Shown here: piece after piece, positions 534 to 37,021 of the stretch
How the letters are laid out: each line of letters opens with the position of its first letter
Numbering within the stretch: the first letter of the stretch is position 1
Source: an uncultured Jatrophihabitans sp.
GTDB lineage: Bacteria > Actinomycetota > Actinomycetes > Mycobacteriales > Jatrophihabitantaceae
DNA length: 37,119 bases
Reading direction: 5' to 3'
Assembly: GCA_964252095.1 (NCBI GenBank)
Contig: CAXUNA010000004.1
Location: 1,788-38,906, forward strand
Notes under the pieces: model-generated
Told to the model about the DNA's origin: nothing
Seen by the model: the letters and a program-made list of their open reading frames with translations, nothing else
Database searches by the model: none
Program-made: the position numbers and the translations under genes

Positions 534-2735
534 TCAGGCGCCGGTGCCGACCAGTTCGCGGGGTGCCGGACCCACCGCGGGCGGCGGATTCCCCCGTCCC
601 GGCCAGCGGATCCGGTCCCCGAGCAGCACGAGCAGGGACGGCAGCACCACCGCACGGACCAGGACCGCGTCCACGAGCACCGCGGCGGCGAGGCCCACAC
701 CGAGCTGCTTCATCTCGAGCAGGTGCAGCGAGGCGAAGATCGCGAACACCGACACCATGACGACGGCGGCCGCGGTGACCGTCCCGGCGGACCGCCCCAC
801 GCCGACCCGCACCGCCTCGCGCACCGACAACCCCCGCGCGGTCGCCTCGCGGATGCTGTTGACGACGAAGACGTGGTAGTCCATCGACAACCCGAACAGC
901 ACCGTGAAGGTGAACAGCGGGATCCAGTTGATCAGCCGACCGCTGGACTCGTAGCCGAGCAGGCCGTCGGCCCAGTGGTGCTGGAACACCAGGGTCAGCA
1001 TCCCGAACGCCGCACCGGCCGAGAGCAGGTTCATCCCGGCCGTGCAGAGCGCCAGCAGCACCGACCTGAACACGAACGCCGTGAAGAACACCGTCAACGT
1101 CACCACCACGGCGATCACCCACGGCAGCCGACTGCTCAGCTGGTGGTTGGCGTCGACGTCGGCCGCGGTCTCGCCACCGACCGCGAACCGGGCGCCGGCG
1201 ACACCGTCCACCGCGGCGGGTAGGAGGGTCGTGCGCAGCTCGGAGACACCGCCGCGCGCTGCTGCGGATTCCGCATCGGACGGCATCACGAGCTGCAGGT
1301 ACTGCGTGGCGCCGTCCGGTGACGCCGTCAGCACCGGTGGGCCGTCTACGACGAAGTGACCGTCCCTGCGGACCCGGTCGGCGAGCGCGAGCAGGGCGCG
1401 GTGCACCTCGGGCCCGGTGTCGGCCGACGAGCGCACGACCACGTCGGCGGTGGAGTTGGTCTCGGGGAACGCGGTGGTCAGCCGGTCGAGCGTGTGTTTC
1501 GCGGGCAGCGAGTTCGGCAGCGACTCCACGCTGCCGGACATCAGCTGCATCCCCCACGCCGGCAACGCGAGCAGGACGAGGACGCCGGCCGAGACCAGGA
1601 AGGTCCGACCCGGGTGGTCGAGCGAGGGCCGCAGCACCCGCGACCACGTCCTGGACCCGCCGCCGTCGCGCGCGGTCAGCCGCCACAGCAACGGCACCCG
1701 CGGCCGGTCGATCGTGCGACCGAGACCGACCAGCAGGGCCGGCAGCACCGTCAGCGACCCGAGTACGGCGACCGCGACGACGATGACCGACCCGGTGGCG
1801 AGCGACGCGAAGACGATGTTGCCGCTGACGTACAGGCCGAGCATCGCGATCACCACGGCCACGCCCGAGACCAGCACGCTGTGCCCCGAGGTCTCCGCGG
1901 CGATCTCGACCGCGTCCAGCGTGCTGCGCCCGGCCCGTCGTTCGGCCCGGGCCCGCTTGACGTAGAACAACGAGTAGTCGACGCCCACGGCCATGCCCAT
2001 GAGCAGGATGACGCTCGACGTCGAGCCGGAGTCCGGGACGACGTGCGAGGCCAGGGCGGACAACCCGGTCGCGGCACCGACCGCCGAGAGCGCGAGCAGC
2101 ACCGGCACGCCGGCCGCCACGATCGCGCCGAACACGACCAGCAGGATCACCACCGTCACCGGCAGGCTGATCCCCGCCGCCGAGCTCAGGTCGTCGGCCA
2201 CCAGGTCGTCGACGGCGGCGTTCACCGAGGCCGAGCCGGCTTCCTCGATCCGCAGCGTCGGGTTCGCGCGCTGCACGGCCGCCGTTGCATCCAGCAACGG
2301 TCGCACGACCACGTCCGCATCGTCCGCGCGTTGCCGCAGGACGATCTGCACGGTGACGGCCGTCCGGTCCGGGGACGTGATGGGAGCCGATACCCGCGCG
2401 ACCTGCGGCAGCGGCGTCATCCGCGCCGCCACCTGCGCCGCCGCCGTCGCGGCCGCCGCCGGGCCGAGGGCACCGTCCCGCGCGGTGATCAGCACGTTCT
2501 CGGTGGCCGGTGCGGTGAGGTGGGCGTCGTGCAGCCAGCGCATCGCCTGCCCGGACTGGCCCGTGGAGGTGTCGAGTTCGGTGGCCTCCTGCAGGCCGGC
2601 GAGTTGGCCGGCGAGCACGCAACCGGCGACGAACACCAGCCACAGGGCGATGGCACGCCACCGGTGGGTGGCGCTCCACCGGGCGAGGCGGACGGCGACG
2701 GCGCGGCGGGCGGCCGAGGGAGGTTCGGGGTTCAC
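534..2735 (-). CDS. MMPL/RND-superfamily membrane transporter (MmpL-like)
   Basis: Frame of ORF 534..3002. Two blocks of multiple TM helices separated by soluble loops, typical MMPL architecture (GVDYSLFYVKRARAE, GLSMDYHVFVVNSIREA). Start chosen at GTG 2735, preceded by AGGAG (CCGTCAGGAGCAGAC GTG); the upstream part of the ORF is Arg/Ser-rich and non-protein-like. Confidence 0.85.
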   Translation of the reverse strand: MNPEPPSAARRAVAVRLARWSATHRWRAIALWLVFVAGCVLAGQLAGLQEATELDTSTGQSGQAMRWLHDAHLTAPATENVLITARDGALGPAAAATAAAQVAARMTPLPQVARVSAPITSPDRTAVTVQIVLRQRADDADVVVRPLLDATAAVQRANPTLRIEEAGSASVNAAVDDLVADDLSSAAGISLPVTVVILLVVFGAIVAAGVPVLLALSAVGAATGLSALASHVVPDSGSTSSVILLMGMAVGVDYSLFYVKRARAERRAGRSTLDAVEIAAETSGHSVLVSGVAVVIAMLGLYVSGNIVFASLATGSVIVVAVAVLGSLTVLPALLVGLGRTIDRPRVPLLWRLTARDGGGSRTWSRVLRPSLDHPGRTFLVSAGVLVLLALPAWGMQLMSGSVESLPNSLPAKHTLDRLTTAFPETNSTADVVVRSSADTGPEVHRALLALADRVRRDGHFVVDGPPVLTASPDGATQYLQLVMPSDAESAAARGGVSELRTTLLPAAVDGVAGARFAVGGETAADVDANHQLSSRLPWVIAVVVTLTVFFTAFVFRSVLLALCTAGMNLLSAGAAFGMLTLVFQHHWADGLLGYESSGRLINWIPLFTFTVLFGLSMDYHVFVVNSIREATARGLSVREAVRVGVGRSAGTVTAAAVVMVSVFAIFASLHLLEMKQLGVGLAAAVLVDAVLVRAVVLPSLLVLLGDRIRWPGRGNPPPAVGPAPRELVGTGA

Positions 2736-2868
2736 GTCTGCTCCTGACGGGTCGGGGTGACGTGTCGAGCCTCGCGGCGCCCGGGCGACGGCACAGGAGA
2801 GTTGCGTCGCCGACGAGGGTGGACTTTCCTCCACCCCGCCGCCCCTCGCCGTCCGCCACGATGGGCGG

Positions 2869-4002: not shown

Positions 4003-4314
4003 CCGGGGGTGACCGCGTCCGCGGCCGAGGTGGTGGCGTCACCGCGTCGTGCCGAGCGGAACCGTCGTGGAGCAACCGGGTCGGGTGACGCGGGCTGACG
4101 GCGTGCCTCGCAGCGAGCGGGCGGCGGCCCGGGCGAGCAGGTCGGTGTGCCGCCAGTGGGTGGTGGCCCGGCCGTGGTGCGGCGCGGCCGGAACGAGCGG
4201 CGACCGGACAGGATGACGACGCACACCACCGCACACGACAGGGCCGCAGCCGTCACGAACCGGGGTTCGAGGTCGTTTCCGGAACGGTGGTGACGTCCGG
4301 TCGGCCCTGCGATG

Positions 4315-21425: not shown

Positions 21426-22945
21426 GCACGACGAAGGACGTCGTCACCGCGAGGGAATCCACGCTCGCGCCGCCGGAACGCGCCGCGGCCAAGCTCGCCG
21501 ACCAGAACAAGCTGTACGTCCGTGAGCGCATCGCGCTGCTGACCGATGAGGGCAGCTTCGTCGAGGACGGCCAGCTCGCGAACGCCCTCGCCGCCGGGTT
21601 GCCGGCCGACGGCGTCGTCACGGGGCAGGCGCTGGTCGACGGCCGCCCGGCGTTGATCGTGGCCAACGACCCCACCGTCAAGGCGGGTTCGTGGGGCGCG
21701 CGGACGGTCGAGAAGATCATCCGGATCACCGAACGGGCGCTGGTCGAGGAACTGCCGATCTTCTGGCTCATCGACTCCGCCGGCGCGCGGATCACCGACC
21801 AGGTCGCGCTGTTCCCGGGCCGTCGCGGGGCCGGGCGGATCTTCCACAACCAGGTGAAACTGTCGGGCAAGGTCCCGCAGATCTGCTGCCTGTTCGGGCC
21901 TTCCGCCGCGGGCGGCGCCTACATCCCGGCCTTCTGCGACGTCGTGATCATGGTCGACGGCAACGCCTCGATGTACCTGGGATCGCCGCGGATGGCCGAG
22001 GTCGTCGTCGGGGAGAAGGTGTCGTTGGAGGAGATGGGCGGCGCCCGGATGCACACCGAGGTGTCCGGCTGCGGCGACCTGCTCGCCACCGACGACGCCG
22101 ACGCCATCGAGCAGGCGCGCCTGTTCTTCTCCTACCTGCCGACCTGCTGGCGCGAACCCGCCCCCGAGGTGGAAGCGGCGGAGCCCTCGGCACTGCTCGA
22201 CGAGAACACTGTTCCCGCCGAGGAGAGCCTGCCGTTCGACATCCACACCGTGCTCGACGGCGTCCTCGACGCCGACAGCTTCTTCGAGATCAAACCGTCC
22301 TACGCCGCCGAGGTCGTCGTCGGGTTCGGCCGCGTCGACGGCAACCCGGTCGGCGTCGTCGCGAACAACTCGGTCGTCCGCGGCGGTGTGCTGTTCGTGG
22401 ATTCCGCCGACAAGAGCGCGCGTTTCATCGAGCTGTGCGACGCCTTCAACGTGCCGCTGCTGTACTTCGCCGACGTCCCCGGCTTCATGATCGGCAGCGA
22501 CGTCGAACGCCAGGGCATCATCCGCCACGGCGCGAAGATGATCACCGCGATGGCGTCGGCGACCGTGCCGCAACTGTCGATCGTGGTCAGGAAGGCCTAC
22601 GGCGCCGGGCTCTACGCGATGAACGGCCCCGGTTTCGAACCCGACATCTGCCTCGCGCTGCCGACCGCGAAGATCGCCGTCATGGGGCCGGACGCGGCGG
22701 TCAACGCCGTCTACGCCGGCAAGCTCGCGACGATCGCCGATCCCGACGAGCGCAACGCGTTCGCCGCGGACCGCCGCGCCGAGTACGAACTCGACGTCGA
22801 CCTGCTGCGACTGGTGTCCGAGCTCGTCATCGACGACATCGTCGAGGCCGCCGATCTCCGACGTCAGATCTCCCACCGGCTCGCCGTGCTCGTCGGCAAG
22901 TCACGGGTGCAGCCGGAGAAGCACCACGGGGTGCGACCGGTGTGA
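21422..22945 (+). CDS. Acyl-CoA carboxylase beta subunit (carboxyltransferase; methylcrotonyl-/propionyl-CoA carboxylase-like)
   Basis: GKLYVRERIALLTDEGSFVE, IVANDPTVKAGSWG, LIDSAGARI, FGPSAAGGAYIPAF, ADVPGFMIGSDVERQGIIRHGAKM. GTG 21422 overlaps the upstream stop (GTGA). Confidence 0.9.
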   Translation: MSTTKDVVTARESTLAPPERAAAKLADQNKLYVRERIALLTDEGSFVEDGQLANALAAGLPADGVVTGQALVDGRPALIVANDPTVKAGSWGARTVEKIIRITERALVEELPIFWLIDSAGARITDQVALFPGRRGAGRIFHNQVKLSGKVPQICCLFGPSAAGGAYIPAFCDVVIMVDGNASMYLGSPRMAEVVVGEKVSLEEMGGARMHTEVSGCGDLLATDDADAIEQARLFFSYLPTCWREPAPEVEAAEPSALLDENTVPAEESLPFDIHTVLDGVLDADSFFEIKPSYAAEVVVGFGRVDGNPVGVVANNSVVRGGVLFVDSADKSARFIELCDAFNVPLLYFADVPGFMIGSDVERQGIIRHGAKMITAMASATVPQLSIVVRKAYGAGLYAMNGPGFEPDICLALPTAKIAVMGPDAAVNAVYAGKLATIADPDERNAFAADRRAEYELDVDLLRLVSELVIDDIVEAADLRRQISHRLAVLVGKSRVQPEKHHGVRPV

Positions 22946-27105: not shown

Positions 27106-28470
27106 TCAGGAATCGAAGCGTTCCTCGTGCAGCTGGGCGTCCGGGAGGCCGGCGTCGCGCAGTGCTTTCCGCACGCCGGCCGCGAGGCGTGGTGAGCCAC
27201 AGAGGTAGACGTCACGGTCGCTCAGGTCGGGTGCGAAGCGCCGGAACAGCTGTGGGGTGAACGGCCCGATCCGGTCGCCGAGCAGGTAGTGCACGCGAGC
27301 GCCGCGGGCTCGGGCGATCGCGTCGAGCTCGTGGCCGAAGATCACCTCGTCGGCCGAACGGGCGCGGTACAGCAGCAGCAGGTCCTGACCGGGCGCCAGC
27401 GGCATCGTCTCGAACAACGCCCGCATCGGGGTGATCCCCACACCGCCGGCGACCAGCAGGACGTTGCGGCGGGTGCGCCGTCCGGCCGTCACCGCGCCGT
27501 ACGGACCTTCCGCCATCAACCACGTCCCGGGTTCCAACGCCTGCAGCAGGCGGCTCCCGTCGCCGAGTGACTTCACCGTCAGCCGCAGGTGTGTGCTCGT
27601 CGGCGCCGCGGACAGGGAGAACGGGTGCGCCGTCTGCCAGAGGTCGGGGGTGAGGAACCGCCACCGGAAGAACTGGCCCGATTCCGCCTGCAGGTCGTCG
27701 AGGTCGTGGCCGGTGACATGCACCGAGACCACACCGGGTCCCTCCCGCACCACCGACTCGACCCGCATCCGGTGCCGGGTGGAGTTGCGCAGCGGCGTCA
27801 CGACGCGGTGGAGGACGACGAGGGCGAACACCTGGGTGTAGAGCAGCGCCCAGAGCACCTGGACGATCCGGTGACCGGCGAGGTCGGGACCGGCGAGCTG
27901 GTGCACGAAGCTCAGCGCGACAGCGATGTAGGTGAGCAGGTGGACCGCATGCCACCGCTCGTGGGCGATCCGCTTGCGCGCCAGGCGGATCGACATGCCG
28001 GCCACCACGAGGATCAACACCGTCCCGATCGACGCGGCGATCAACCACGGCATCCGCAGCACCTGCCACAGGGCCGGCCCGACCGACTCACCACGCGCCT
28101 GCGACCAACCCACGACCGCCGCCCAGGCGTGCACGACGATCAGCAGCACCACGGCACGCCCACCGCGGCCGTGCCAGCGGGCGAGCCGGTCCGCGCCGAC
28201 ACCCCTTTCCAGGGCGGGAGTCCTGGACATCAAGCCGATCATCACCACCACCGCGTACCCCGCCAGCATGCCGGCGACGTGCGCGACGAGCGGGGCGGGG
28301 CGGTACGGCGCGGGGAGACTCGCCGCGAGCAGGACCGGCCAGACCGCGACGGCCAGCCCACCGGCTGCGATCGCCAGGAGCACGGCGTCGGGTGACACCC
28401 GTCGGCCCCGGCCGGCGGCTGGAAGGACCGGGTGCGCAACGGGCCGAGCCGTCGCGGTGGGCACGCTCAC
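27106..28470 (-). CDS. Ferric-reductase-like transmembrane flavocytochrome (NOX/FRE family: bis-heme TM domain + FAD- + NAD-binding domains), paralogue 1
   Basis: His pairs WHGRGGRAVVLLIVVHAW and WHAVHLLTYIAVALSFVHQL; FAD motif HPFSLSAAP; NAD motifs VAGGVGITPMRALF and YLCGSP. Start GTG 28470 (GAGGA upstream) gives an N-terminal length matching paralogue 2; the rest of the 633-aa ORF is Arg-rich shadow. Confidence 0.85.
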   Translation of the reverse strand: MSVPTATARPVAHPVLPAAGRGRRVSPDAVLLAIAAGGLAVAVWPVLLAASLPAPYRPAPLVAHVAGMLAGYAVVVMIGLMSRTPALERGVGADRLARWHGRGGRAVVLLIVVHAWAAVVGWSQARGESVGPALWQVLRMPWLIAASIGTVLILVVAGMSIRLARKRIAHERWHAVHLLTYIAVALSFVHQLAGPDLAGHRIVQVLWALLYTQVFALVVLHRVVTPLRNSTRHRMRVESVVREGPGVVSVHVTGHDLDDLQAESGQFFRWRFLTPDLWQTAHPFSLSAAPTSTHLRLTVKSLGDGSRLLQALEPGTWLMAEGPYGAVTAGRRTRRNVLLVAGGVGITPMRALFETMPLAPGQDLLLLYRARSADEVIFGHELDAIARARGARVHYLLGDRIGPFTPQLFRRFAPDLSDRDVYLCGSPRLAAGVRKALRDAGLPDAQLHEERFDS

Positions 28471-28772
28471 CGCCCACGTCCTCGTCCACCACGCGGACCG
28501 GCGACGGCGGGAGCGGTCGGCACGGCTGCCGTCGGACCGGGGGCGGTGCCGGCGGTGACCGCCTCCGTCGTCACGGCGGGTGCGGGTCCCGGTGCGACCG
28601 GCGAGACCGACGGGGCGGTGAGACCGAGCCAGAGCGCGACCCCGGCCGACAGCGAGGTGACGACGACGCTGGTACGGCGTGCGCGGCGACGGCCGTCGGC
28701 GCGTGCCGAGCGATCGGGCGCCGCGGCGAGGTGGGACGGGGACCAGCCGAGAGTGGCGGTGGGACTGACCAT
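28467..28772 (-). CDS. Hypothetical membrane-anchored Pro/Ala/Thr-rich small protein (101 aa), coupled to ferric-reductase paralogue 1
   Basis: ATG 28772 preceded by AAAGGA. RRRARRTSVVVTSLSAGVALWLGLTA looks like an N-in TM anchor followed by a PAT-rich linker. Its stop overlaps the downstream GTG (GTGA at 28467-28470). Low-complexity, so uncertain. Confidence 0.35.
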   Translation of the reverse strand: MVSPTATLGWSPSHLAAAPDRSARADGRRRARRTSVVVTSLSAGVALWLGLTAPSVSPVAPGPAPAVTTEAVTAGTAPGPTAAVPTAPAVAGPRGGRGRGR

Positions 28773-28826
28773 GTCGTCCTTTGTCGCAGCCGCGGCTGGC
28801 ATCGACCCGCCGTACGGCTGGACACC

Positions 28827-28876
28827 ACCTGTCAGAGAGCGGCACCCCGGCCAGGCACTTGCCAGGCACCTGGCAG
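28827..28876. promoter_or_regulatory. Cluster of CCTG(T/G)CA half-sites in the divergent promoter region between the ferric-reductase-1 operon and the response regulator
   Basis: ACCTGTCAG at 28827-28835 and ACCTGGCAG at 28868-28876. GCCAGGCAC at 28850-58 and 28861-69 (11-bp spacing). TGCCAGG-CA-CCTGGCA forms a 16-bp palindrome at 28860-28875. Confidence 0.55.
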
Positions 28877-28936
28877 GTGACGCACAGACGGCGGCGAGCG
28901 GACGCACGGGACAATGGGCCGGGTGAGGACCCCCCG

Positions 28937-29656
<720 letters not shown>

Positions 29657-29657
29657 C

Positions 29658-31187
29658 GTGGCCGCGCGGACGCGTCCGACGGGTCGGGTCCGGGGGTTCA
29701 CCGCGCGGATTCCGCTCCGGGTCAGGCTCGTCGTCGCCGTACTGGGTCTGCTCGTGTTCGCCCTGCTCGCCTCCGGCGTCATCGGTGTCACGACGATGCG
29801 CAGCTACCTCACCGGCCGTGTCGACTCGCAGCTGCGCGCCGTCGCCGAACACCCGGGCGACGACGTCCCGGTGCAGGACGTGACCGGCGGTGGGACCACG
29901 GGCGGTGCTGGAGGCGGACCCGGTGGTGGGCGTGGTGGCCGCGGCGGCCACCAGTTGGCCAGCGCGTTCGTCGTGCAGGTCCTGGGCACCACCGGCGCCG
30001 TCACCTACCAGGCCAGCGACCTCATCGATGCCACCGAACCGCTTCCCCGGCTGCCGACGGTCACCGCGACGACCTCGACGGGGAACGGGTCACGCACCCT
30101 CACCGTCGGCGCCATCTCGGGGAACGGCCAGTGGCGGGTGCTGGTCGAACCCGTAAGGCTGACCGACGGAACGGCCGGGACCCTGCTCGTCGCCCAGAGC
30201 CTCGGCGACGTGACGGGAACCGTGGACCGACTCGCTCTCATCCTGCTCGTCATCGGAGCCGCGACCGTCGTGGTGATGGCCGCGCTCGCGTACGTCATCG
30301 TCCGACGCAGCCTGCGGCCCCTGCGCGCGGTCGAACACACCGCGACCGCGATCGCCGCGGGCGACCTCACCCAGCGTGTGCCGACCAGCGACCCCCGCAC
30401 CGAGGTCGGTCAGTTGGCCGCCGCGCTCAACACGATGCTCGGCGAGATCGAGACCGCGTTCGACCAACGTTCCCGGTCCGAGGCGACCGCGCGCGAATCC
30501 GAGACACGCATGCGTCGCTTCGTCGCCGACGCCAGTCACGAACTGCGCACCCCCCTGACGTCGATCCGGGGTTTCGCCGAGCTCTACCGGCAGGGCGCGG
30601 TGCCGAGTCCCGTCGATGTCGACCGCGTCATGCGACGCATCGAGGACGAGGGGCAACGGATGGGCCTGCTCGTCGAGGATCTCCTGACGCTCGCCAGGCT
30701 CGATCAGCAGCGGCCGTTGACCCGGGTGCCGGTCGACCTGCTCGCCCTCGCGACCGACGCCGTCCACGACGCTCGTGCGATCGCGCCGGACCGATCCGTG
30801 AGCCTCACACTGGGCGCCACCGATCCTCCGCCCATCGTCACGGGTGACGAAGCGCGGCTGCGGCAGGTGGTCGGCAACCTCGTGGGCAATGCGTTGCGGC
30901 ACACGCCGCCCCGAAGTGCTGTTGCCATCGAGGTCGGCGCGACGAGGTCGGGCGACGTCGAACTCGCCGTGGTCGACGACGGTCCCGGCCTCTCGCAGAG
31001 CGATGCCGCACAGGTCTTCGAGCGGTTCTACCGCAGCGACCAGGCCCGCAACCGTGATGACGGCGGTACCGGGCTGGGGCTGTCCATCGTGGCGGCGCTG
31101 GTCGCGGCGCACGGCGGCACGGTGTGGGTGGAGACGGCACCGGGTGCCGGCGCCCGCTTCGTCGTGCGCCTCCCCCTCGCGGTCTGA
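29658..31187 (+). CDS. Sensor histidine kinase (2 TM, extracytoplasmic loop, HAMP, HisKA, HATPase_c)
   Basis: H-box FVADASHELRTPLTSIRGFAELY; N/G boxes VGNLVGNALRHTP, DDGPGL, GGTGLGLSIV. GTG 29658 is 1 nt after the RR stop, with GAGGA upstream. Confidence 0.92.
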   Translation: MAARTRPTGRVRGFTARIPLRVRLVVAVLGLLVFALLASGVIGVTTMRSYLTGRVDSQLRAVAEHPGDDVPVQDVTGGGTTGGAGGGPGGGRGGRGGHQLASAFVVQVLGTTGAVTYQASDLIDATEPLPRLPTVTATTSTGNGSRTLTVGAISGNGQWRVLVEPVRLTDGTAGTLLVAQSLGDVTGTVDRLALILLVIGAATVVVMAALAYVIVRRSLRPLRAVEHTATAIAAGDLTQRVPTSDPRTEVGQLAAALNTMLGEIETAFDQRSRSEATARESETRMRRFVADASHELRTPLTSIRGFAELYRQGAVPSPVDVDRVMRRIEDEGQRMGLLVEDLLTLARLDQQRPLTRVPVDLLALATDAVHDARAIAPDRSVSLTLGATDPPPIVTGDEARLRQVVGNLVGNALRHTPPRSAVAIEVGATRSGDVELAVVDDGPGLSQSDAAQVFERFYRSDQARNRDDGGTGLGLSIVAALVAAHGGTVWVETAPGAGARFVVRLPLAV

Positions 31188-31295
31188 CCAGCCGGTCTCG
31201 GATCCACGCGGGGATCCGCGCCCTCCGAGCAGCGACCGGGTTGCGGCCGTCCCCGCACGTCGTCCGGACCTCTGTCACCCCGGTGCGGCGTGGGT

Positions 31296-31326
31296 TCCTG
31301 TCGGCCACCTGTCAGAAACCTGTCAG
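31296..31326 (+). promoter_or_regulatory. Three direct repeats with exact 11-bp phasing (candidate OmpR-type response-regulator binding site) upstream of the DUF3500 gene
   Basis: TCCTGTCGG (31296-304), ACCTGTCAG (31307-315) and ACCTGTCAG (31318-326). About 100 nt upstream of ATG 31425. Confidence 0.6.
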
Positions 31327-31424
31327 CGGGAACGCCGGATTGCCAGCTTGGCTTGAGGTCCGTTTGAGGAGTGCTCCAGCAGGGTGTTCTGGACCCACAC
31401 GACGACAGAAGGCAGCTTTCACCC

Positions 31425-32642
31425 ATGTTCGACCGTCCTCCCCTCACGCACCTCCCCCGTCCGTACAAGGCTCATCTCAACCGGCGTACCGGCGCGATCG
31501 CCATCGCCTGCGTGAGCGCTGCCGTGATCGCCGGCTGCAGCGCCGCATCGATCACGAGCGAGTCCGCGTCCAGCACGGCGAGCGGTCAGCGCTCGGGCCC
31601 TCCCGGCGGGTTCCCCGGCGGCGGGGCGGGCGGTGGGCTGCAGACCTTCACCGCCGTCGACCTCGACACCGACGGCGCGAACGCCTCCGACGCCAACACC
31701 GCGGAGGTCGTCGCCGCCACCCAGGCTTTCCTCGCGACGCTCGACGCGACGACCGCCGGCAAGGTCGAGTACGACTTCTCCGACAACCAGTCCCGCCAGA
31801 CCTGGTCGAACTACCCGTCGCAGCAGGTGCCCCGCAAGGGCGTCGCGCTGTCCGACCTCACCGACACCTCCAAGGCCGCGGCGTTGGCGGTCGTCAAGAC
31901 CATGTTGAGCGCGCAGGGGTACTCGCAGGTCGAAGCCGTCCAGCAGGCCGACGACTGGCTGAAGGCGAACAGCTCGTCCGGCACCGACAGCTTCGGCTCG
32001 GACACCGACTACTACATCGCCGTCTACGGCACACCGTCGGCGACCGACCCGTTCATGGTGCAGTTCGGCGGTCACCACCTCGCCCGCAACTACACCTACA
32101 AGGGCACCACGGCGTCGATCACCCCGGACTTCACGGGCACCGAGCCGAAGTCCTTCACCGTCGGCAACACCGACGTGGAACCGCTGAAGGAGAAGGCCGG
32201 CACCCTGTTCTCGGTCTTCGACTCGCTCACCGACGAGCAGGACGCGAAGGCGAAGCTCGCGGGAACGATCAACGACATCCTCATGGGCCCCAGTGTCGAC
32301 AGCGGGAAGTTCCCGGCCACCGAGGGGGTGTCCGTCGGCGACCTGTCCGCGGCCCAGCAACAGCTCGTGCTCGCGGCCATCGCGGCGTGGGTGGACGACG
32401 CGGCACCGGCCGAGGCCGCGTCCCTGCTCGCGACCTACGAGGCTGACCTCAGCAAGACCACCATCGCCTACGCCAACAGCACCACGGTCGACGGCGAGAA
32501 CACGTACCTGCGCATCGACGGCCCGCGGGTGTGGATCGAGCTCGTGAACACCCGCAGTCAGAGCACCCCGAACGTCCATTACCACGGGGTGTACCGCGAC
32601 AAGACCGACGACTACGGCAGCACCAACCCCAGCACCCGATGA
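31425..32642 (+). CDS. DUF3500-family lipoprotein (unknown function)
   Basis: N-terminus NRRTGAIAIACVSAAVIAGC has a twin-Arg plus a lipobox (Cys codon at 31533). C-terminal HYHGVYRDKTDDYG matches my recollection of the conserved DUF3500 end; family assignment needs an HMM check. Confidence 0.7.
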   Translation: MFDRPPLTHLPRPYKAHLNRRTGAIAIACVSAAVIAGCSAASITSESASSTASGQRSGPPGGFPGGGAGGGLQTFTAVDLDTDGANASDANTAEVVAATQAFLATLDATTAGKVEYDFSDNQSRQTWSNYPSQQVPRKGVALSDLTDTSKAAALAVVKTMLSAQGYSQVEAVQQADDWLKANSSSGTDSFGSDTDYYIAVYGTPSATDPFMVQFGGHHLARNYTYKGTTASITPDFTGTEPKSFTVGNTDVEPLKEKAGTLFSVFDSLTDEQDAKAKLAGTINDILMGPSVDSGKFPATEGVSVGDLSAAQQQLVLAAIAAWVDDAAPAEAASLLATYEADLSKTTIAYANSTTVDGENTYLRIDGPRVWIELVNTRSQSTPNVHYHGVYRDKTDDYGSTNPSTR

Positions 32643-34015
32643 GCATCTGGTCACGGGCGACGCGAACGGTCGTGATCGGCTCGGCGGCTGTGCTCGCCGT
32701 CCTCGGCTCCGCTCCCCCGGTGGGGGCGCACCCGCTCAACACGTCGGCGGTGCTGCTCGACATCGGGACCGACGCGGTCACCGCCACCATCGAGCTGCCG
32801 CTGGACCAGCTCAGCGTCGCCCGTGACCAGCAGCTCACCGCGACGACCGTTCTGGAGTCGCCGACCCTGACCGGCCTGCGGGCCTACGTCCGGGCCCACG
32901 TGTCGGCGAGCGACGGCTCGGGACGGACGTGGACCACCCAGGTCGTGGGCGGGCACGTGGCGGAGATCGACGGCGCCGACAACCTCGTGCTCGACGCCAC
33001 GCTGAGACCCGACGGCGGAACGGTCGGCAGCTTCGTGCTCCACGACGACGCGGTCGTCGACCTCCTGATCTCGCACCGCATCTTCGTGTCGGCGCGCTAC
33101 GGCGACTCGGGGGACTACACCACCCTCGCCATGCTGTCGTGGCAGACGACGACCGTGCCGGTGGAATCGACCGCTCCGCCGGAGTCGCGAGGCTTCATCG
33201 CCGCGGTGCACCTCGGTTTCCAGCACATCAGCAGCGGCAGCGACCACCTGTTGTTCCTGATGATGCTGTTGCTACCAGCACCCCTCGTCGCCCGCACGAG
33301 ACGGTGGGTGCAGAGGTCGGACAGCGGGTGGACGGGTCTGCGGCGAACGGCGCGGCGGGTCGTGCACGTCGTGTCCGCGTTCGCGCTCGGGCACTCCGTC
33401 ACGCTCGCTCTCGGCGCGCTCGGCTGGGTGGCACTACCCGACCGCCTGGTCGAGTCCGGTATCGCGCTCTCGGTGTTCGTCTCCGCCGTGCACGCGATCA
33501 GGCCACTGGTCCGCCGCGGCGAAGCAGTCATCGGGTTCGGGTTCGGTCTGCTGCACGGGTTGGCCTTCGCCGCTCTCCTCGGACAGCTCGACCTGAGCCG
33601 ACGCGCACTCGTGACGACCCTGCTCGGTTTCAACCTCGGCATCGAACTGACGCAGCTCGCCGTTGTCGCGCTGGTGATGCCGTCTCTCGTGCTGCTGTCG
33701 GCGACCCCGCTCTATCCGAGGCTGCGAGTGCTGACCGCCCTCGTGGGCGCCGCCCTCGCGACCGGTTGGTTCGCCGAACGGGTGGGCGTCATCTCGACCA
33801 ATCCGTTGGAGCCGGTCGGCAACGCCTTGGTCGGACACCCGTTGGCGGTCGCGGGCGTCCTCGCCGGGGTGGCGGCGGTGTCAGGCATCCGGACGCGGCG
33901 AGCGACGTTTCGTGCCCTGCCGACACAGGTGGTGTGGCCGACGTCGGGCAGTGGTGCCGCAGACTGTCCGCCGGACCGTGTCGACCCGGAGCGACTGCTG
34001 GTGCCGGAGACCTGA
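32639..34015 (+). CDS. HupE/UreJ-like (HupE_UreJ_2 type) membrane protein with N-terminal extracytoplasmic domain
   Basis: Signal peptide ending ...PPVGA|HPLN. TM-domain motifs GFQHISSGSDHLLFLMMLLL, FALGHSVTLALG, GFGLLHGLAFA. ATG 32639 overlaps the DUF3500 stop (ATGA). Confidence 0.75.
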   Translation: MSIWSRATRTVVIGSAAVLAVLGSAPPVGAHPLNTSAVLLDIGTDAVTATIELPLDQLSVARDQQLTATTVLESPTLTGLRAYVRAHVSASDGSGRTWTTQVVGGHVAEIDGADNLVLDATLRPDGGTVGSFVLHDDAVVDLLISHRIFVSARYGDSGDYTTLAMLSWQTTTVPVESTAPPESRGFIAAVHLGFQHISSGSDHLLFLMMLLLPAPLVARTRRWVQRSDSGWTGLRRTARRVVHVVSAFALGHSVTLALGALGWVALPDRLVESGIALSVFVSAVHAIRPLVRRGEAVIGFGFGLLHGLAFAALLGQLDLSRRALVTTLLGFNLGIELTQLAVVALVMPSLVLLSATPLYPRLRVLTALVGAALATGWFAERVGVISTNPLEPVGNALVGHPLAVAGVLAGVAAVSGIRTRRATFRALPTQVVWPTSGSGAADCPPDRVDPERLLVPET

Positions 34016-34239: not shown

Positions 34240-35031
34240 CTACCTGGAGTGAGGAGTCGACCCGGGCCGGACGCCCCGCGGCCAGCCGACACTGGCCCGC
34301 CGCCGTCCGGTCCGGTCGACGGTGAGCAACTCGTAGCCGTCGACCGTGTCGATCCAGTCGAAGGCCGCGTCTCCCCGCGCGAAGGCGGCGGTGGCGTAGG
34401 CGTCGGCGAACGTCAGCGACTGCCCGACGACTGTTGCACTCAACAGCGGTCCGGCGACGGGCAGCCGGTCGAACGGGTGGTGGATGTGGTGCCCCCGCTC
34501 GGCCGTCCCCGAGGTCGCGACCGCGCCGTCGGTCAGCGACACCGTCGTGACCGTGCGGGTCCGCTCGCGCGGGTCGACCACACCGATCCGCCACGGCTGC
34601 GCACCCGCGGAACCGCGGACCCGCACGTCGCCGCCGCCGTTGACGCAGTGGTGGGCGAACCCCTTGTCCGCCAGCAACCAGCTCGCGCGTTCGACCGCCC
34701 AGCCCTTGACCAGGCCCGTGGGGTCGATCACGCCGGACCACAGCGGCGTGAACCACCCCTCGGTGTCGGTCCGCGCGGTGGCGCACAGGTCGAGCACGGC
34801 GGCGACGTCGGGATCGGCGTCGGCGAGGCGCAACTCACGCCGCTGCAGGCGGGAGACGTCGCTGTCGGGGCGGTAGGTGCTGAACACGGCGTCGACGTGG
34901 TGCAGCCACGCGACGTCCTCGGCCACCGCCGCCGCGGGCTCGGCGTCGTCGCGGATGTCGATCGAGAAGACCGTGCCCATACAGGGCTCGACGTGCACGG
35001 AACGCCCGGGGACGGCGGTCGGCGAGGTCAC
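34240..35031 (-). CDS. apbE: FAD:protein FMN transferase (ApbE family)
   Basis: ApbE-like N-terminus (EPCMGTVFSIDI), with FSTYRPDSDVSRL and GLVKGWAVE. GTG 35031 overlaps the FMN_bind stop (GTGA). No N-terminal signal peptide or lipobox visible. Confidence 0.8.
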   Translation of the reverse strand: MTSPTAVPGRSVHVEPCMGTVFSIDIRDDAEPAAAVAEDVAWLHHVDAVFSTYRPDSDVSRLQRRELRLADADPDVAAVLDLCATARTDTEGWFTPLWSGVIDPTGLVKGWAVERASWLLADKGFAHHCVNGGGDVRVRGSAGAQPWRIGVVDPRERTRTVTTVSLTDGAVATSGTAERGHHIHHPFDRLPVAGPLLSATVVGQSLTFADAYATAAFARGDAAFDWIDTVDGYELLTVDRTGRRRASVGWPRGVRPGSTPHSR

Positions 35032-35534
35032 AGGCCGGCCTGGTCCAGTGCACTCTGCAACGATGCGATGTACCCCTCGCTCGTGTAGGTGGCGCCCGAG
35101 ACCGTGTCGATGCCGGCGGTGCCGGCGGCCGTCGCCTCGGCGTTCAGCTGTGGCACCGCGTACTGGTTGATCTCGGCGTCGCGCGGGTTGTCCTGCGGGT
35201 ACTCGACGGCCTGAACCGCGGTCACCTTGCCGCCGGTGACCGTGATCTCCACCTGGACGGGGCCGTACCGGGTGTCGGCGGCCGCCCCCGTGTACGTGCC
35301 GGCCGCCGGGGCGGCGGACGACGAGGGGGCGGGCGTCGAGGTCGAGGGAACCGCCGCTGCCGCACTGTTCCCGGTTGTCGGGACCGCCGTGGTCGGCGCA
35401 GGCAGGGTCCCCCCGGTCGGACCGGCCGCCACGGCGGCCGGGAGGGTCGCGGTGGCGAGCGGGTGGGTCTTGAACGACAGCAGCATCACCAGTCCGGTGA
35501 CCGTGCCGACGAGGGCGAACAGGGCGCGTCGCAT
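35028..35534 (-). CDS. Membrane-anchored FMN-binding (FMN_bind) domain protein, predicted ApbE substrate
   Basis: N-terminal anchor MRRALFALVGTVTGLVMLLSF, PAT-rich linker, then an FMN_bind domain with the flavinylation motif IDTVSGATYTSEGY (SGAT codons at 35088-35099). Confidence 0.85.
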   Translation of the reverse strand: MRRALFALVGTVTGLVMLLSFKTHPLATATLPAAVAAGPTGGTLPAPTTAVPTTGNSAAAAVPSTSTPAPSSSAAPAAGTYTGAAADTRYGPVQVEITVTGGKVTAVQAVEYPQDNPRDAEINQYAVPQLNAEATAAGTAGIDTVSGATYTSEGYIASLQSALDQAGL

Positions 35535-35561
35535 GGTGCGGGTCTCGTCTCTCGTGAGGGA

Positions 35562-36959
35562 TCAGAACGTGAACGATTCGTGGTGGATCTGACGACGTGG
35601 GACCTTCGCCGTGCGCAACGCGGCCACCGTCGCGGTGGCCATGCCGTCGGGACCGCAGACGAAGACGTCGTGGTCGCGCAGGCCGGGGACATTCGCCGCC
35701 AGCGACTCCGCCGAGAGCGGGTCGTGGCCCAGATCCCGGCGGTGACCCACCAGGAAGTGCACCCGCGCCCCGCGAGCGCGGGCGATCGCCTCGATCTCGT
35801 GTCGGAAGACGACGTCGTCCTCACGCCCCACCCGGTACAGCAGCGTGAGCTCGCCGGACCGGGCGGGCACGGTCTGGAACAGAGCACGCAGCGGGGTGAT
35901 CCCGATGCCGCCGGCGATGAGCAGGACCTTCTCCCGCCGTCGACGGGCGGCGGTCATCGCGCCGTACGGTCCCTCGGCGAGCACGCGGGTACCGGGCCGC
36001 AGGTCGCGCAACGCGGCACTGTGACCGCCGAGGTCCTTGACGGTGATGCGCAGTTTCCCGGGGATCGGTGCCGCCGAGAGCGAGTACGGGTTCGAGGCCC
36101 ACCACGACCCCCGGGTGAGGAACCGCCACCGGAAGAACTGCCCGGCCTGCGGCGCGAGCTCGTCGACGCGTCGACCGGTCACCACCACCGAGACCACTCC
36201 CGGCCCCTCCACGTCGACGGCGTCGACCCGCATGCGGTGGCGCCAGGCCTGCCGGGCCGGGACGAGCACGCGGTACCAGAGCACCGCCGCGCCCACCGCG
36301 ACGTAGAGCGCGGCCCAGACCACCCTCGCCGCGGGGTTCGCGACGAACTCGGCCCCGGTGGAGAACTGGTGGCTGAACGCCAGCGCCACGGCGAGGTACG
36401 TGTAGAAGTGCAGGTGGTACCAGGTCTCGTACGTCATCCGCCGGCGGGCCGCCCGGGCCGAGACCGCCCCGACCCCGACCAGCAGACCGCCGGCGACCGT
36501 GGCCATGAGGACGTCCGGGTAGCTCAGCAGCAGGGTCCCGGCCTGGTCGAGGATCCCGGCGTGGGCGCTGACCGCGTAGCCCCACGTGATGAGCAGCGCG
36601 TGGGCCACCACCAGCGACACGCTGTAACGCCCGCCCCGCGCGTGCCACACCGCGAGACGGTCCGCGCCGATGCCGCGTTCGAGCAGCGGAATGCGCGCCA
36701 TCAGCGCGATCAGCACCACGACGCCGTAGCCCGCGAGCAACCCCGTGATGCGTCCGGCGTTGGTGAGCCAGTCACCGAGGCCGTGGATCGCCGGCGTGTC
36801 CGTCCACCACAGCGCGACCACGGCGCCGGCACCCGCCACGACCGTGGCCCACACCGCGGAGGGACGGGCGCGGGCCGGTGCCCGGTCCGCCGGACGGGAC
36901 GGCGTGGGCGCCGGAGGACGGTCCGGGTGTGGCCGGGACGTCGCCAGAGTGCTGGTCAC
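35562..36959 (-). CDS. Ferric-reductase-like transmembrane flavocytochrome (NOX/FRE family), paralogue 2
   Basis: His pairs WHARGGRYSVSLVVAHAL and WYHLHFYTYLAVALAFSHQF; NPYSLSAAP; IAGGIGITPLRALF; VFVCGP. GTG 36959 preceded by GGGAGAAAGGA. Confidence 0.9.
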   Translation of the reverse strand: MTSTLATSRPHPDRPPAPTPSRPADRAPARARPSAVWATVVAGAGAVVALWWTDTPAIHGLGDWLTNAGRITGLLAGYGVVVLIALMARIPLLERGIGADRLAVWHARGGRYSVSLVVAHALLITWGYAVSAHAGILDQAGTLLLSYPDVLMATVAGGLLVGVGAVSARAARRRMTYETWYHLHFYTYLAVALAFSHQFSTGAEFVANPAARVVWAALYVAVGAAVLWYRVLVPARQAWRHRMRVDAVDVEGPGVVSVVVTGRRVDELAPQAGQFFRWRFLTRGSWWASNPYSLSAAPIPGKLRITVKDLGGHSAALRDLRPGTRVLAEGPYGAMTAARRRREKVLLIAGGIGITPLRALFQTVPARSGELTLLYRVGREDDVVFRHEIEAIARARGARVHFLVGHRRDLGHDPLSAESLAANVPGLRDHDVFVCGPDGMATATVAALRTAKVPRRQIHHESFTF

Positions 36960-37001
36960 CGGTCCTTTCTCCCGGACGCGGCTCTCACGACCCTCTGCAC
37001 T

Positions 37002-37021
37002 TCCTGTACGCCTGCTGTCAA
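37002..37021. promoter_or_regulatory. Two degenerate CTGT(C/A)A repeats with 11-bp phasing upstream of ferric-reductase paralogue 2
   Basis: TCCTGTACG (37002-010) and TGCTGTCAA (37013-021), 43-62 nt upstream of GTG 36959. Weaker match to the ACCTGTCAG motif seen at 28827 and 31307/31318. Confidence 0.3.

Follow-up and report, generated by a model that had tools for sequence, protein, structure and literature searches.

PhoPR is a two-component system known from tuberculosis virulence. Here we compare with it a repeat array in an uncultured Jatrophihabitans sp. (GenBank assembly GCA_964252095.1, contig CAXUNA010000004.1, positions 1,788 to 38,906 of the forward strand; this whole stretch of 37,119 nucleotides is the window in what follows). 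The array, three short direct repeats at 31296-31326, lies downstream of the genes for a response regulator (RR) and a sensor histidine kinase (HK) and upstream of a gene pair encoding a DUF3500 lipoprotein and a HupE_UreJ_2 membrane protein (DUF3500-HupE). We read it as a set of PhoP boxes, a predicted operator for the phosphorylated form of the adjacent PhoP-like RR that probably links DUF3500-HupE to this regulator, and we give this reading a probability of roughly three in four.

In Mycobacterium tuberculosis (Mtb), PhoP recognizes 7-bp direct repeats of TCACAGC with a strict 4-bp spacer, and its complex with DNA has been solved (PMC4832192). Footprinted DR1/DR2/DR3 sites include ACGTACAGC, ATGCACAGC and TGTTTCAGC (PMC4832192, PMC3413638). 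Tandem PhoP dimers overlap the −35 element (PMC4832192, PMC11825685, PMC3413638), and cryo-electron microscopy (cryo-EM) shows them displacing the contact between sigma region 4 and the −35 element (PMC11825685). Generic operators of the OmpR/PhoB family share with the array direct repeats one helical turn apart, an arrangement that accommodates winged-helix domains head to tail.

The repeat array and its neighbouring regulator

The following features of the window define the locus.

31296-31304, first repeat unit, TCCTGTCGG (read from the sequence)
31307-31315, second repeat unit, ACCTGTCAG
31318-31326, third repeat unit, ACCTGTCAG
28937-29656, plus strand, PhoP-like OmpR-family RR, the presumed binder (Pfam Response_reg and Trans_reg_C)
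29658-31187, plus strand, PhoR-like sensor HK (Pfam HAMP, HisKA and HATPase_c)
31425-32642, plus strand, DUF3500 lipoprotein (Pfam; lipobox VIAGC in the translation)
32636-34015, plus strand, HupE_UreJ_2 membrane protein (Pfam)
31425-34015, plus strand, the last two genes together, candidate regulated operon

The array is real and non-random. Its three repeats start at 31296, 31307 and 31318, exactly 11 bp apart as had been claimed from inspection of the letters, a spacing that accommodates a 7-bp motif and a 4-bp spacer. It begins 109 nt past the HK stop (31187) and ends 99 nt ahead of the DUF3500 ATG (31425), and with the Pfam gene map this confirms the original prediction's placement about 100 nt upstream of DUF3500 and downstream of the RR and HK genes. 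The exact 9-mer ACCTGTCAG occurs three times on the two strands of the window (28827, 31307 and 31318), against an expectation of 0.22 from dinucleotide-preserving shuffles, none of which reached three in 100 trials. Both the copy that had been reported at 28827, which lies where the RR gene and a minus-strand small open reading frame (ORF) and ferric-reductase operon diverge, and the estimate of well under one occurrence by chance thus hold.

The original prediction had also proposed searching both strands of the window for the motif, with and without its spacing, and here the outcome was divided. The phased pattern CCTGKC-N5-CCTGKC, allowing at most one mismatch, was enriched (6 matches against 1.96 expected), four of the six matches falling within the intergenic regions on either side of the RR-HK pair. 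In contrast, neither the short core CCTGKCA (11 matches against 8.9 expected) nor the degenerate WCCTGTCRG taken alone (4 against 1.72) was significantly enriched, so the significance resides in the phased array and not in the short core. The proposed motif, (T/A)CCTGTC(G/A)G, likewise stands as a description of a real array but not as its informative core, which is CAG(G/C) within an 11-bp unit.

Judged by sequence, the RR-HK pair is a PhoPR-type two-component system, because the RR matches Mtb PhoP and the kinase aligns with a PhoR. The RR is about 72% identical to Mtb PhoP and matches its structures (3R0J, 5ED4, 9JI3-5, 9KET-V) over its whole length (E = 2e-108, 365 bits); the next Mtb regulator, PrrA, reaches 200 bits. 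The alignment with Mtb PhoP shows no difference in NVVESYVSYLRRKID, the stretch with the recognition helix, or in RGVGYVLR, the stretch with the wing. These two stretches include Asn212, Val213, Glu215, Ser216, Tyr217, Tyr220 and Arg237, which contact bases or the minor groove in the PhoP-DNA crystal structure, and Ser219, Arg222, Arg223 and Tyr241, which contact phosphates (PMC4832192). The HK is 46% identical end to end with PhoR of M. colombiense (locus L016), whose partner RR is essentially PhoP (493 bits).

The HK goes by the label 'tcrY' in some sources. We rejected a TcrXY identity, the RR being far closer to PhoP than to the other solved Mtb regulators, and counted against it as well that TcrX is reported to use a 7-bp mirror repeat and to have no regulon consensus (PMC10883919). 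The RR also falls outside the PhoB equivalog TIGR02154, which it matches at 203 bits against a cut-off of 296.2. The idea of an MprA box was dropped when a literature search gave nothing usable for it.

A PhoP-box matrix and a promoter module in related loci

To describe the motif independently of the window, we turned to relatives, defined as loci encoding close homologues of the window kinase. In their intergenic regions an array of 11-bp units with the core nnCAG(G/C) keeps recurring, with three units or, at times, four. It precedes the RR gene as well as a reductase operon, in each case in the sense orientation relative to the gene that follows. This operon, (small ORF)-Ferric_reduct-FMN_bind-ApbE, is the conserved neighbour of the RR-HK pair in the relatives, situated downstream of the kinase or divergent from the RR. 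From 30 regions or sites in related PhoPR loci, with the window excluded, we built an iteratively refined 33-nt weight matrix, whose consensus is GACAGGAAACT CCCAGGTTGTT GGCAGGCAAGA and whose information is concentrated on C-A-G.

At 23 sites in independent genomes the array belongs to a module of fixed geometry, consisting of three units, 15 nt, a 7-nt −10-like element, about 5 nt and an ATG or GTG. The 15-nt gap often holds a weak fourth unit, and the −10-like heptamer of these 23 instances reads GAyAAAn at reductase operons and nAnnCTG at RR genes. Because of this fixed geometry, we interpret the modules as predicted leaderless promoters with the array where a −35 element would be, a layout that agrees with the displacement of sigma region 4 in the Mtb cryo-EM complexes (PMC11825685).

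Scanning both strands of the 37-kb window with this matrix gave the following matches, for which we list score and, for the arrays, the units and what follows them.

28850-28882, plus strand, 25.2 bits, RR promoter; best in the window
28861-28893, plus strand, 18.7 bits, RR promoter in an overlapping register
28850-28893, plus strand, the whole RR (phoP-like) promoter array, GCCAGGCACTT GCCAGGCACCT GGCAGGTGACG CACAGACGGCG, then −10-like GACAAT at 28910-28915
31292-31324, minus strand, 17.4 bits, studied array, third-ranked position and second-ranked site; three 11-bp PhoP-box units GACAGGTTTCT (31324-31314), GACAGGTGGCC (31313-31303) and GACAGGAACCC (31302-31292), the reverse complement of the repeats listed above
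31300-31332, plus strand, 14.9 bits, studied array read in the sense of DUF3500, fourth-ranked position; GTCGGCCACCT GTCAGAAACCT GTCAGCGGGAA, ending 92 nt before the DUF3500 ATG
22130-22162, minus strand, 10.6 bits, noise-level match
36987-37019, minus strand, 10.5 bits, upstream of the second Ferric_reduct-FMN_bind-ApbE operon; GACAGCAGGCG TACAGGAAGTG CAGAGGGTCGT, then 15 nt, GAGAAAG (36971-36965), GACCG and GTG 36959
28801-28833, minus strand, 8.9 bits, upstream of the divergent small ORF-Ferric_reduct operon; GACAGGTGGTG TCCAGCCGTAC GGCGGGTCGAT, then 15 nt, GACAAAG (28785-28779), GACGAC and ATG 28772

A matrix trained on other genomes thus ranks the RR promoter and the studied array at the top of the window, in support of the predicted operator. 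First-order Markov simulations of the window reached a maximum of 10.6 +/- 2.3, with a score of at least 15 in about 4.5% of them, and the background mean is −27.5 (sd 8.6), far below 17.4 and 14.9. The two weaker matches, at 36987 and 28801, are validated by geometry, which is exactly that of the module at the former and canonical at the latter; the additional 9-mer copy at 28827 is the first, promoter-distal unit of the latter. At the RR promoter the array is a direct repeat with 11-bp spacing, and the same arrangement stands upstream of the RR in relatives. These other three arrays of the window all sit in promoters, in the −35 region and oriented towards the gene.

The RR promoter has a further peculiarity. 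About 7 nt past its −10-like GACAAT lies a leaderless five-codon mini-ORF, GTG AGG ACC CCC CGG TGA (28923-28940), whose stop overlaps the RR start codon (GTGA, 28937-28940). Several relatives (L081, L083 and L098) likewise have a similar short ORF with a GTGA overlap ahead of their RR gene, and this recurrence suggests that phoP-like genes may be translationally coupled to a leaderless upstream ORF.

For validation we used 38 PhoPR-like loci whose RR is at least 55% identical to the window RR, found among the matches listed by a genome-collection scan with the full-length HK alignment and generic HisKA peptide patterns. None had been in the training set, and their genera include Kribbella, Nocardia, Rhodococcus, Mycobacterium, Micromonospora and Williamsia. 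Among the matches listed, that scan returned PhoPR-like and other kinases of at most 54% identity and none of the closest relatives; a sensor-domain scan of metagenome contigs returned 13 short contigs only. Upstream of the RR, within 150 nt and on the sense strand, a match of at least 13 bits was present in 21 of the 38 loci (again among the matches listed), compared with 0.25% of 7124 control windows of 150 nt from the same loci. Several loci have a further array 27-29 nt before the start codon of another gene; in L001 and L028, for example, this is a glycosyltransferase gene immediately following the kinase. About 50 promoters of other genomes share this architecture. On this comparative evidence the motif is therefore a conserved property of the regulator family and not of the window alone.

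These scans brought up a second recurrent neighbour. In many other actinobacteria a GT2/GtrA glycosyltransferase gene directly follows the PhoR-like kinase and is itself followed by a PMT_2 mannosyltransferase-like gene. A PhoP-box array lies 27 nt before the start of the glycosyltransferase operon in L001 (8402-8434), L028 (8539-8571), L009 (8840-8872), L054 (9592-9624) and L101 (~7640), and PhoPR-linked envelope glycosylation therefore seems widespread.

The studied array has several features in common with the sites of Mtb PhoP (Rv0757). Its cognate regulator is closely homologous and does not differ in the recognition helix or in the wing residues Arg237 and Tyr241. Both systems have the 11-bp periodicity of a 7-bp motif and a 4-bp spacer, arrays of two to four units and a CAG core, and here too an array precedes the gene of the regulator itself, as would fit autoregulation. 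Canonical modules of this lineage further resemble the Mtb PhoP-RNA polymerase complexes seen by cryo-EM in placing arrays at the −35 position (PMC11825685). The differences are that the local consensus, nnCAG(G/C), prefers G at the last position (GACAGG), that most modules here drive leaderless genes, and that the targets are Ferric_reduct-FMN_bind-ApbE and DUF3500-HupE and not pks2/3, aprABC or mcr7. Moreover, the units of the studied array are almost palindromes, and the better of its two readings is directed away from the sole adjacent gene. In repeat spacing, motif, cognate regulator and cross-genome conservation, and thus by every testable feature except promoter orientation, the site corresponds to an Mtb-type PhoP box.

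By analogy with Mtb PhoP, each 11-bp unit would bind one effector domain through its 7-bp motif, and cooperative tandem oligomers would form from monomers arranged head to tail on one face of the helix. We infer from sequence that binding occurs, in which direction regulation runs and which strand reading is used.

Orientation of the array and the DUF3500-HupE operon

Several observations weigh against the favoured reading. CTGTCAG, the repeat unit, is nearly palindromic and therefore scores on both strands; the minus-strand reading is the better one, with three perfect GACAGG cores (7-mers TGACAGG, TGACAGG and CGACAGG) that point towards the kinase 3' end, in the direction opposite to DUF3500. 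The plus-strand cores, GTCGG, GTCAG and GTCAG, are weaker, and the plus strand has no −10-like element at the canonical distance. A scan of 28500-31600 for sigma-70-like promoters and terminators was negative, a result explained by the promoters here not being of the TTGACA/TATAAT type. The minus-strand units agree with Mtb TCACAGC at only 5/7, 5/7 and 4/7 positions, because the local consensus prefers a final G. DUF3500-HupE is not a conserved neighbour of RR-HK in the relatives examined. Finally, the closest DUF3500 relative, L105, has arrays in reverse orientation that clearly serve a divergent gene for a 142-aa membrane protein, a gene absent from the window.

We weighed these points against the arrangement at other DUF3500 genes. 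DUF3500 has several hundred homologues, and those of about 73-85% identity occur in Frankia, Parafrankia, Friedmanniella, Solicola, Actinokineospora and others, and we compared three independent loci. HupE_UreJ_2 follows DUF3500 in them wherever the contig reaches far enough; the two genes form an overlapping operon in L106/L107 as well, and in L109 a short gap parts the same two genes. The best matrix match of each locus lies just upstream of DUF3500.

L106/L107, 6956-6988, sense to DUF3500, 17.4 bits, GACAGGCCGAT CACAGGTTCCT CGCAGGCACGG (next-best match in L106, 8.3)
L108/L109 (Frankia), 4174-4206, sense to DUF3500, 9.0 bits, CACAGCGGGCG CACAGCGGACT CACAGGAAACA
L105, 2750-2782, reverse to DUF3500, 15.1 bits, CACAGGCGCCT GACAGACAGTT GCCAGACTGAC

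The Frankia site has three CACAG cores at 11-bp spacing and agrees with the Mtb consensus at 18 of 21 positions. The joint chance of these placements, calculated from the locus lengths, is about 2e-5 if any 250-nt stretch is equally likely, a generous figure given that non-coding composition differs. No two-component system was found within the fetched flanks of the three loci, and the arrays at these unlinked loci support the operator reading. A plasmid tblastn for more DUF3500 loci returned only distant, non-actinobacterial homologues (identity at most 41%). Genes for GtrA-like and PMT_2 proteins occupy the left part of L105; because homologues of these directly follow PhoPR in L009, L054 and L101, DUF3500 is probably near PhoPR in the L105 genome too.

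Pairwise alignment of window 31230-31430 with L105 2700-2953 shows all three units conserved in position within diverged non-coding sequence, together with one further element.

31337-31367, plus strand, conserved block GGATTGCCAGCTTGGCTTGAGGTCCGTTTGA, from the alignment with L105 (~2800-2832), seen as GGATTGCCAGnnTGGCTTGAGGTnC..TTGA

The distance from this block to the DUF3500 ATG differs (~58 nt in the window against ~130 nt in L105), and its sequence looks like neither a sigma-70 promoter nor a PhoP array, nor does it resemble an Rfam family. A core promoter of DUF3500 read by an alternative sigma factor is one candidate role for the block, a second operator another. A leaderless start of DUF3500 at GTG 31371, which lies exactly 27 nt past a one-unit-shifted register, was also tried and rejected: the resulting N-terminal extension is not conserved in L105 and no −10-like box precedes the GTG. 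For lack of that conservation, the DUF3500 start is ATG 31425, before the lipoprotein signal peptide.

The most serious alternative is that the array is the PhoP-dependent promoter of a lost divergent gene like that for the 142-aa protein of L105, in which case DUF3500-HupE would not be a target and the array would now be inert or drive a short transcript antisense to the kinase 3' end. The minus-strand reading, besides outscoring the plus (17.4 against 14.9), does form a full canonical module, its three units being followed after 15 nt by a −10-like element.

31270-31276, minus strand, −10-like heptamer GACAGAG, 15 nt downstream of the minus-strand array (the canonical distance) and antisense to the HK 3' end; followed by GTCCG GAC GAC GTG

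The identical 9-mer at 28827 is in minus orientation too, in the canonical module ending at ATG 28772. In L105 the homologous arrays are reverse-oriented within eight consecutive in-phase 11-bp units (88 bp; 2695-2782, minus strand) upstream of the divergent gene, in phase with a canonical module that the proximal three units form for it, with a GTG at +27. The annotated ATG of that gene (2691) is probably wrong, because the GTG 24 nt downstream fits the leaderless module. The 142-aa protein has no Pfam family, and no homologue of it was found in the window or the other loci. Behind the −10-like element of the window there is, however, no plausible gene, the only ORF being a 77-codon frame antisense to the HK that looks non-coding. 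Nor did 31150-31480 yield a riboswitch, small RNA or terminator on either strand, with no Rfam match and no unusually stable RNA structure (folding z-scores +1.69, −0.46 and −0.20). In the simplest history, an L105-like ancestor would have had arrays in a divergent intergenic region and the window lineage would have lost the divergent gene, so that the kinase 3' end came to abut the arrays. The near-perfect state of the three units suggests that they are still in use, and their better preservation here than in L105 points to continued selection; in L106 and L108, moreover, sense arrays stand upstream of DUF3500 without requiring a divergent partner. We therefore regard a relic or purely antisense promoter as unlikely and favour regulation of DUF3500-HupE, the only adjacent gene pair and one whose homologues elsewhere have sense-oriented arrays. 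Because the better reading faces away from DUF3500, the site may be bidirectional or may exert its effect from upstream, in a class-I-like position.

The operator could instead serve a different binder, either another OmpR-family paralogue or a phosphate-type PhoB. On the plus strand, CTGTCAG-AAAC-CTGTCAG agrees with the E. coli pho box, CTGTCAT-N4-CTGTCAT, at 6/7 positions in each unit (PMC4832192), and related loci such as L081 encode further OmpR-type RRs nearby. The adjacent RR is no PhoB equivalog, however, scoring 203 against the required 296 bits while reaching 365 bits with Mtb PhoP. The motif also co-occurs with the RR-HK orthogroup in many genomes, immediately upstream of the RR gene, and the Pfam annotation of the window places no phosphate-uptake genes nearby. 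An E. coli-type pho box was accordingly rejected because the RR falls below the PhoB cut-off and the neighbours (Ferric_reduct, FMN_bind, ApbE, DUF3500 and HupE) are unrelated to phosphate, and a different binder is in our view highly improbable. The Streptomyces PHO box is GTTCACC-N4-GTTCACC, a sequence unrelated to the array. A functionless tandem repeat born of chance or slippage, which two identical 9-mers (as a recent 11-bp duplication would give) and the unenriched short cores might have suggested, is largely refuted by the shuffles, by the array's rank as second-best site for a matrix trained elsewhere, by its position-for-position alignment with L105 and by the recurrence of the architecture at about 50 promoters in other genomes.

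The predicted regulon and its genes

With the array read as PhoP boxes, the arrays of the window would mark a small regulon comprising the RR's own promoter (autoregulation), two Ferric_reduct(-FMN_bind-ApbE) operons encoding extracytoplasmic electron-transfer systems and, most probably, DUF3500-HupE_UreJ_2. The last would be regulated from an upstream position, at about −65 if transcription starts within or beyond the conserved block. The original proposal of an OmpR/PhoB-family operator for the adjacent RR is supported and narrowed to a PhoP homologue with conserved base-contacting residues. The remaining genes concerned are as follows.

27106-28407, minus strand, Ferric_reduct/NAD_binding gene (Pfam)
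28467-28772, minus strand, small ORF ahead of that gene
34240-36959, minus strand, convergent ApbE/FMN_bind/Ferric_reduct operon (Pfam)

The window thus holds two paralogous NOX/MsrQ-like genes combining Ferric_reduct with FAD/NAD-binding domains (27106-28407 and 35562-36959, both minus strand). Each has its own PhoP-box module, and only the second is then followed by FMN_bind and ApbE. The same duplication occurs in L098, where the second operon is oppositely oriented and directly follows the kinase. The small ORF before the divergent Ferric_reduct gene recurs in L081 (4796-5056, minus strand) and L098 (4934-5167, minus strand); it has a conserved hydrophobic motif, (A)LWLG(L/F)TAPSVSPVAP, and no Pfam family. 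An unrelated small ORF of ~130 aa precedes the Ferric_reduct-FMN_bind-ApbE operon in L082, L098, L099 and L102, but no such ORF stands before the second reductase gene of the window (35562-36959). Just past the kinase stop codon, an imperfect palindrome, GGTCTCGGATCCACG / CGGGGATCCGCGCCC (31194-31223), folds no better than shuffled sequence and lacks a T-run, which gives no support for a terminator hairpin.

To our knowledge, bacterial lipoprotein DUF3500 paired with HupE_UreJ_2 is uncharacterised. A fungal DUF3500 protein has been proposed as a ring-cleavage enzyme (bioRxiv 10.1101/2023.06.06.543907). By their gene content, Ferric_reduct(+NAD_binding)-FMN_bind-ApbE, the reductase operons belong to the MsrQ-like class of flavinylation-associated extracytoplasmic electron-transfer clusters proposed for iron reduction (Meheust et al. 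2021, PMC8238504). The portion of that paper available to us makes no PhoPR-type or promoter-motif link, whereas here the link comes from synteny and motif. In the literature covered, which was incomplete, we found no paper linking PhoPR to Ferric_reduct-FMN_bind-ApbE or DUF3500-HupE genes.

The site itself is a textbook predicted operator of OmpR/PhoB type, for a regulator family whose DNA recognition is structurally solved. More useful than the site are the inferred regulon and the leaderless promoter module, a clean and conserved layout for non-mycobacterial PhoPR systems (three to four CAG(G/C) units, 15 nt, −10-like element, 5 nt, start). The analysis offers computational support for a regulon link from PhoPR to an extracytoplasmic flavinylation-dependent reductase system and to DUF3500-HupE_UreJ_2, and the sites could be used in assigning function to DUF3500 lipoproteins. 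These regulon links could hint at the signals to which PhoR-type kinases responded before their adaptation to acid and redox sensing in pathogens.

As a tentative extension, for which the odds at present are rather against us, envelope redox or metal modules may be the ancestral core regulon of PhoPR in environmental actinobacteria, and a single bidirectional array may add antisense feedback on phoR. If so, the stereotyped leaderless module would control NOX/MsrQ-like Ferric_reduct-FMN_bind-ApbE flavin electron transfer along with DUF3500-HupE, and the near-palindromic CTGnCAG units would let one array activate or repress DUF3500-HupE while launching antisense transcription of the phoR 3' end.

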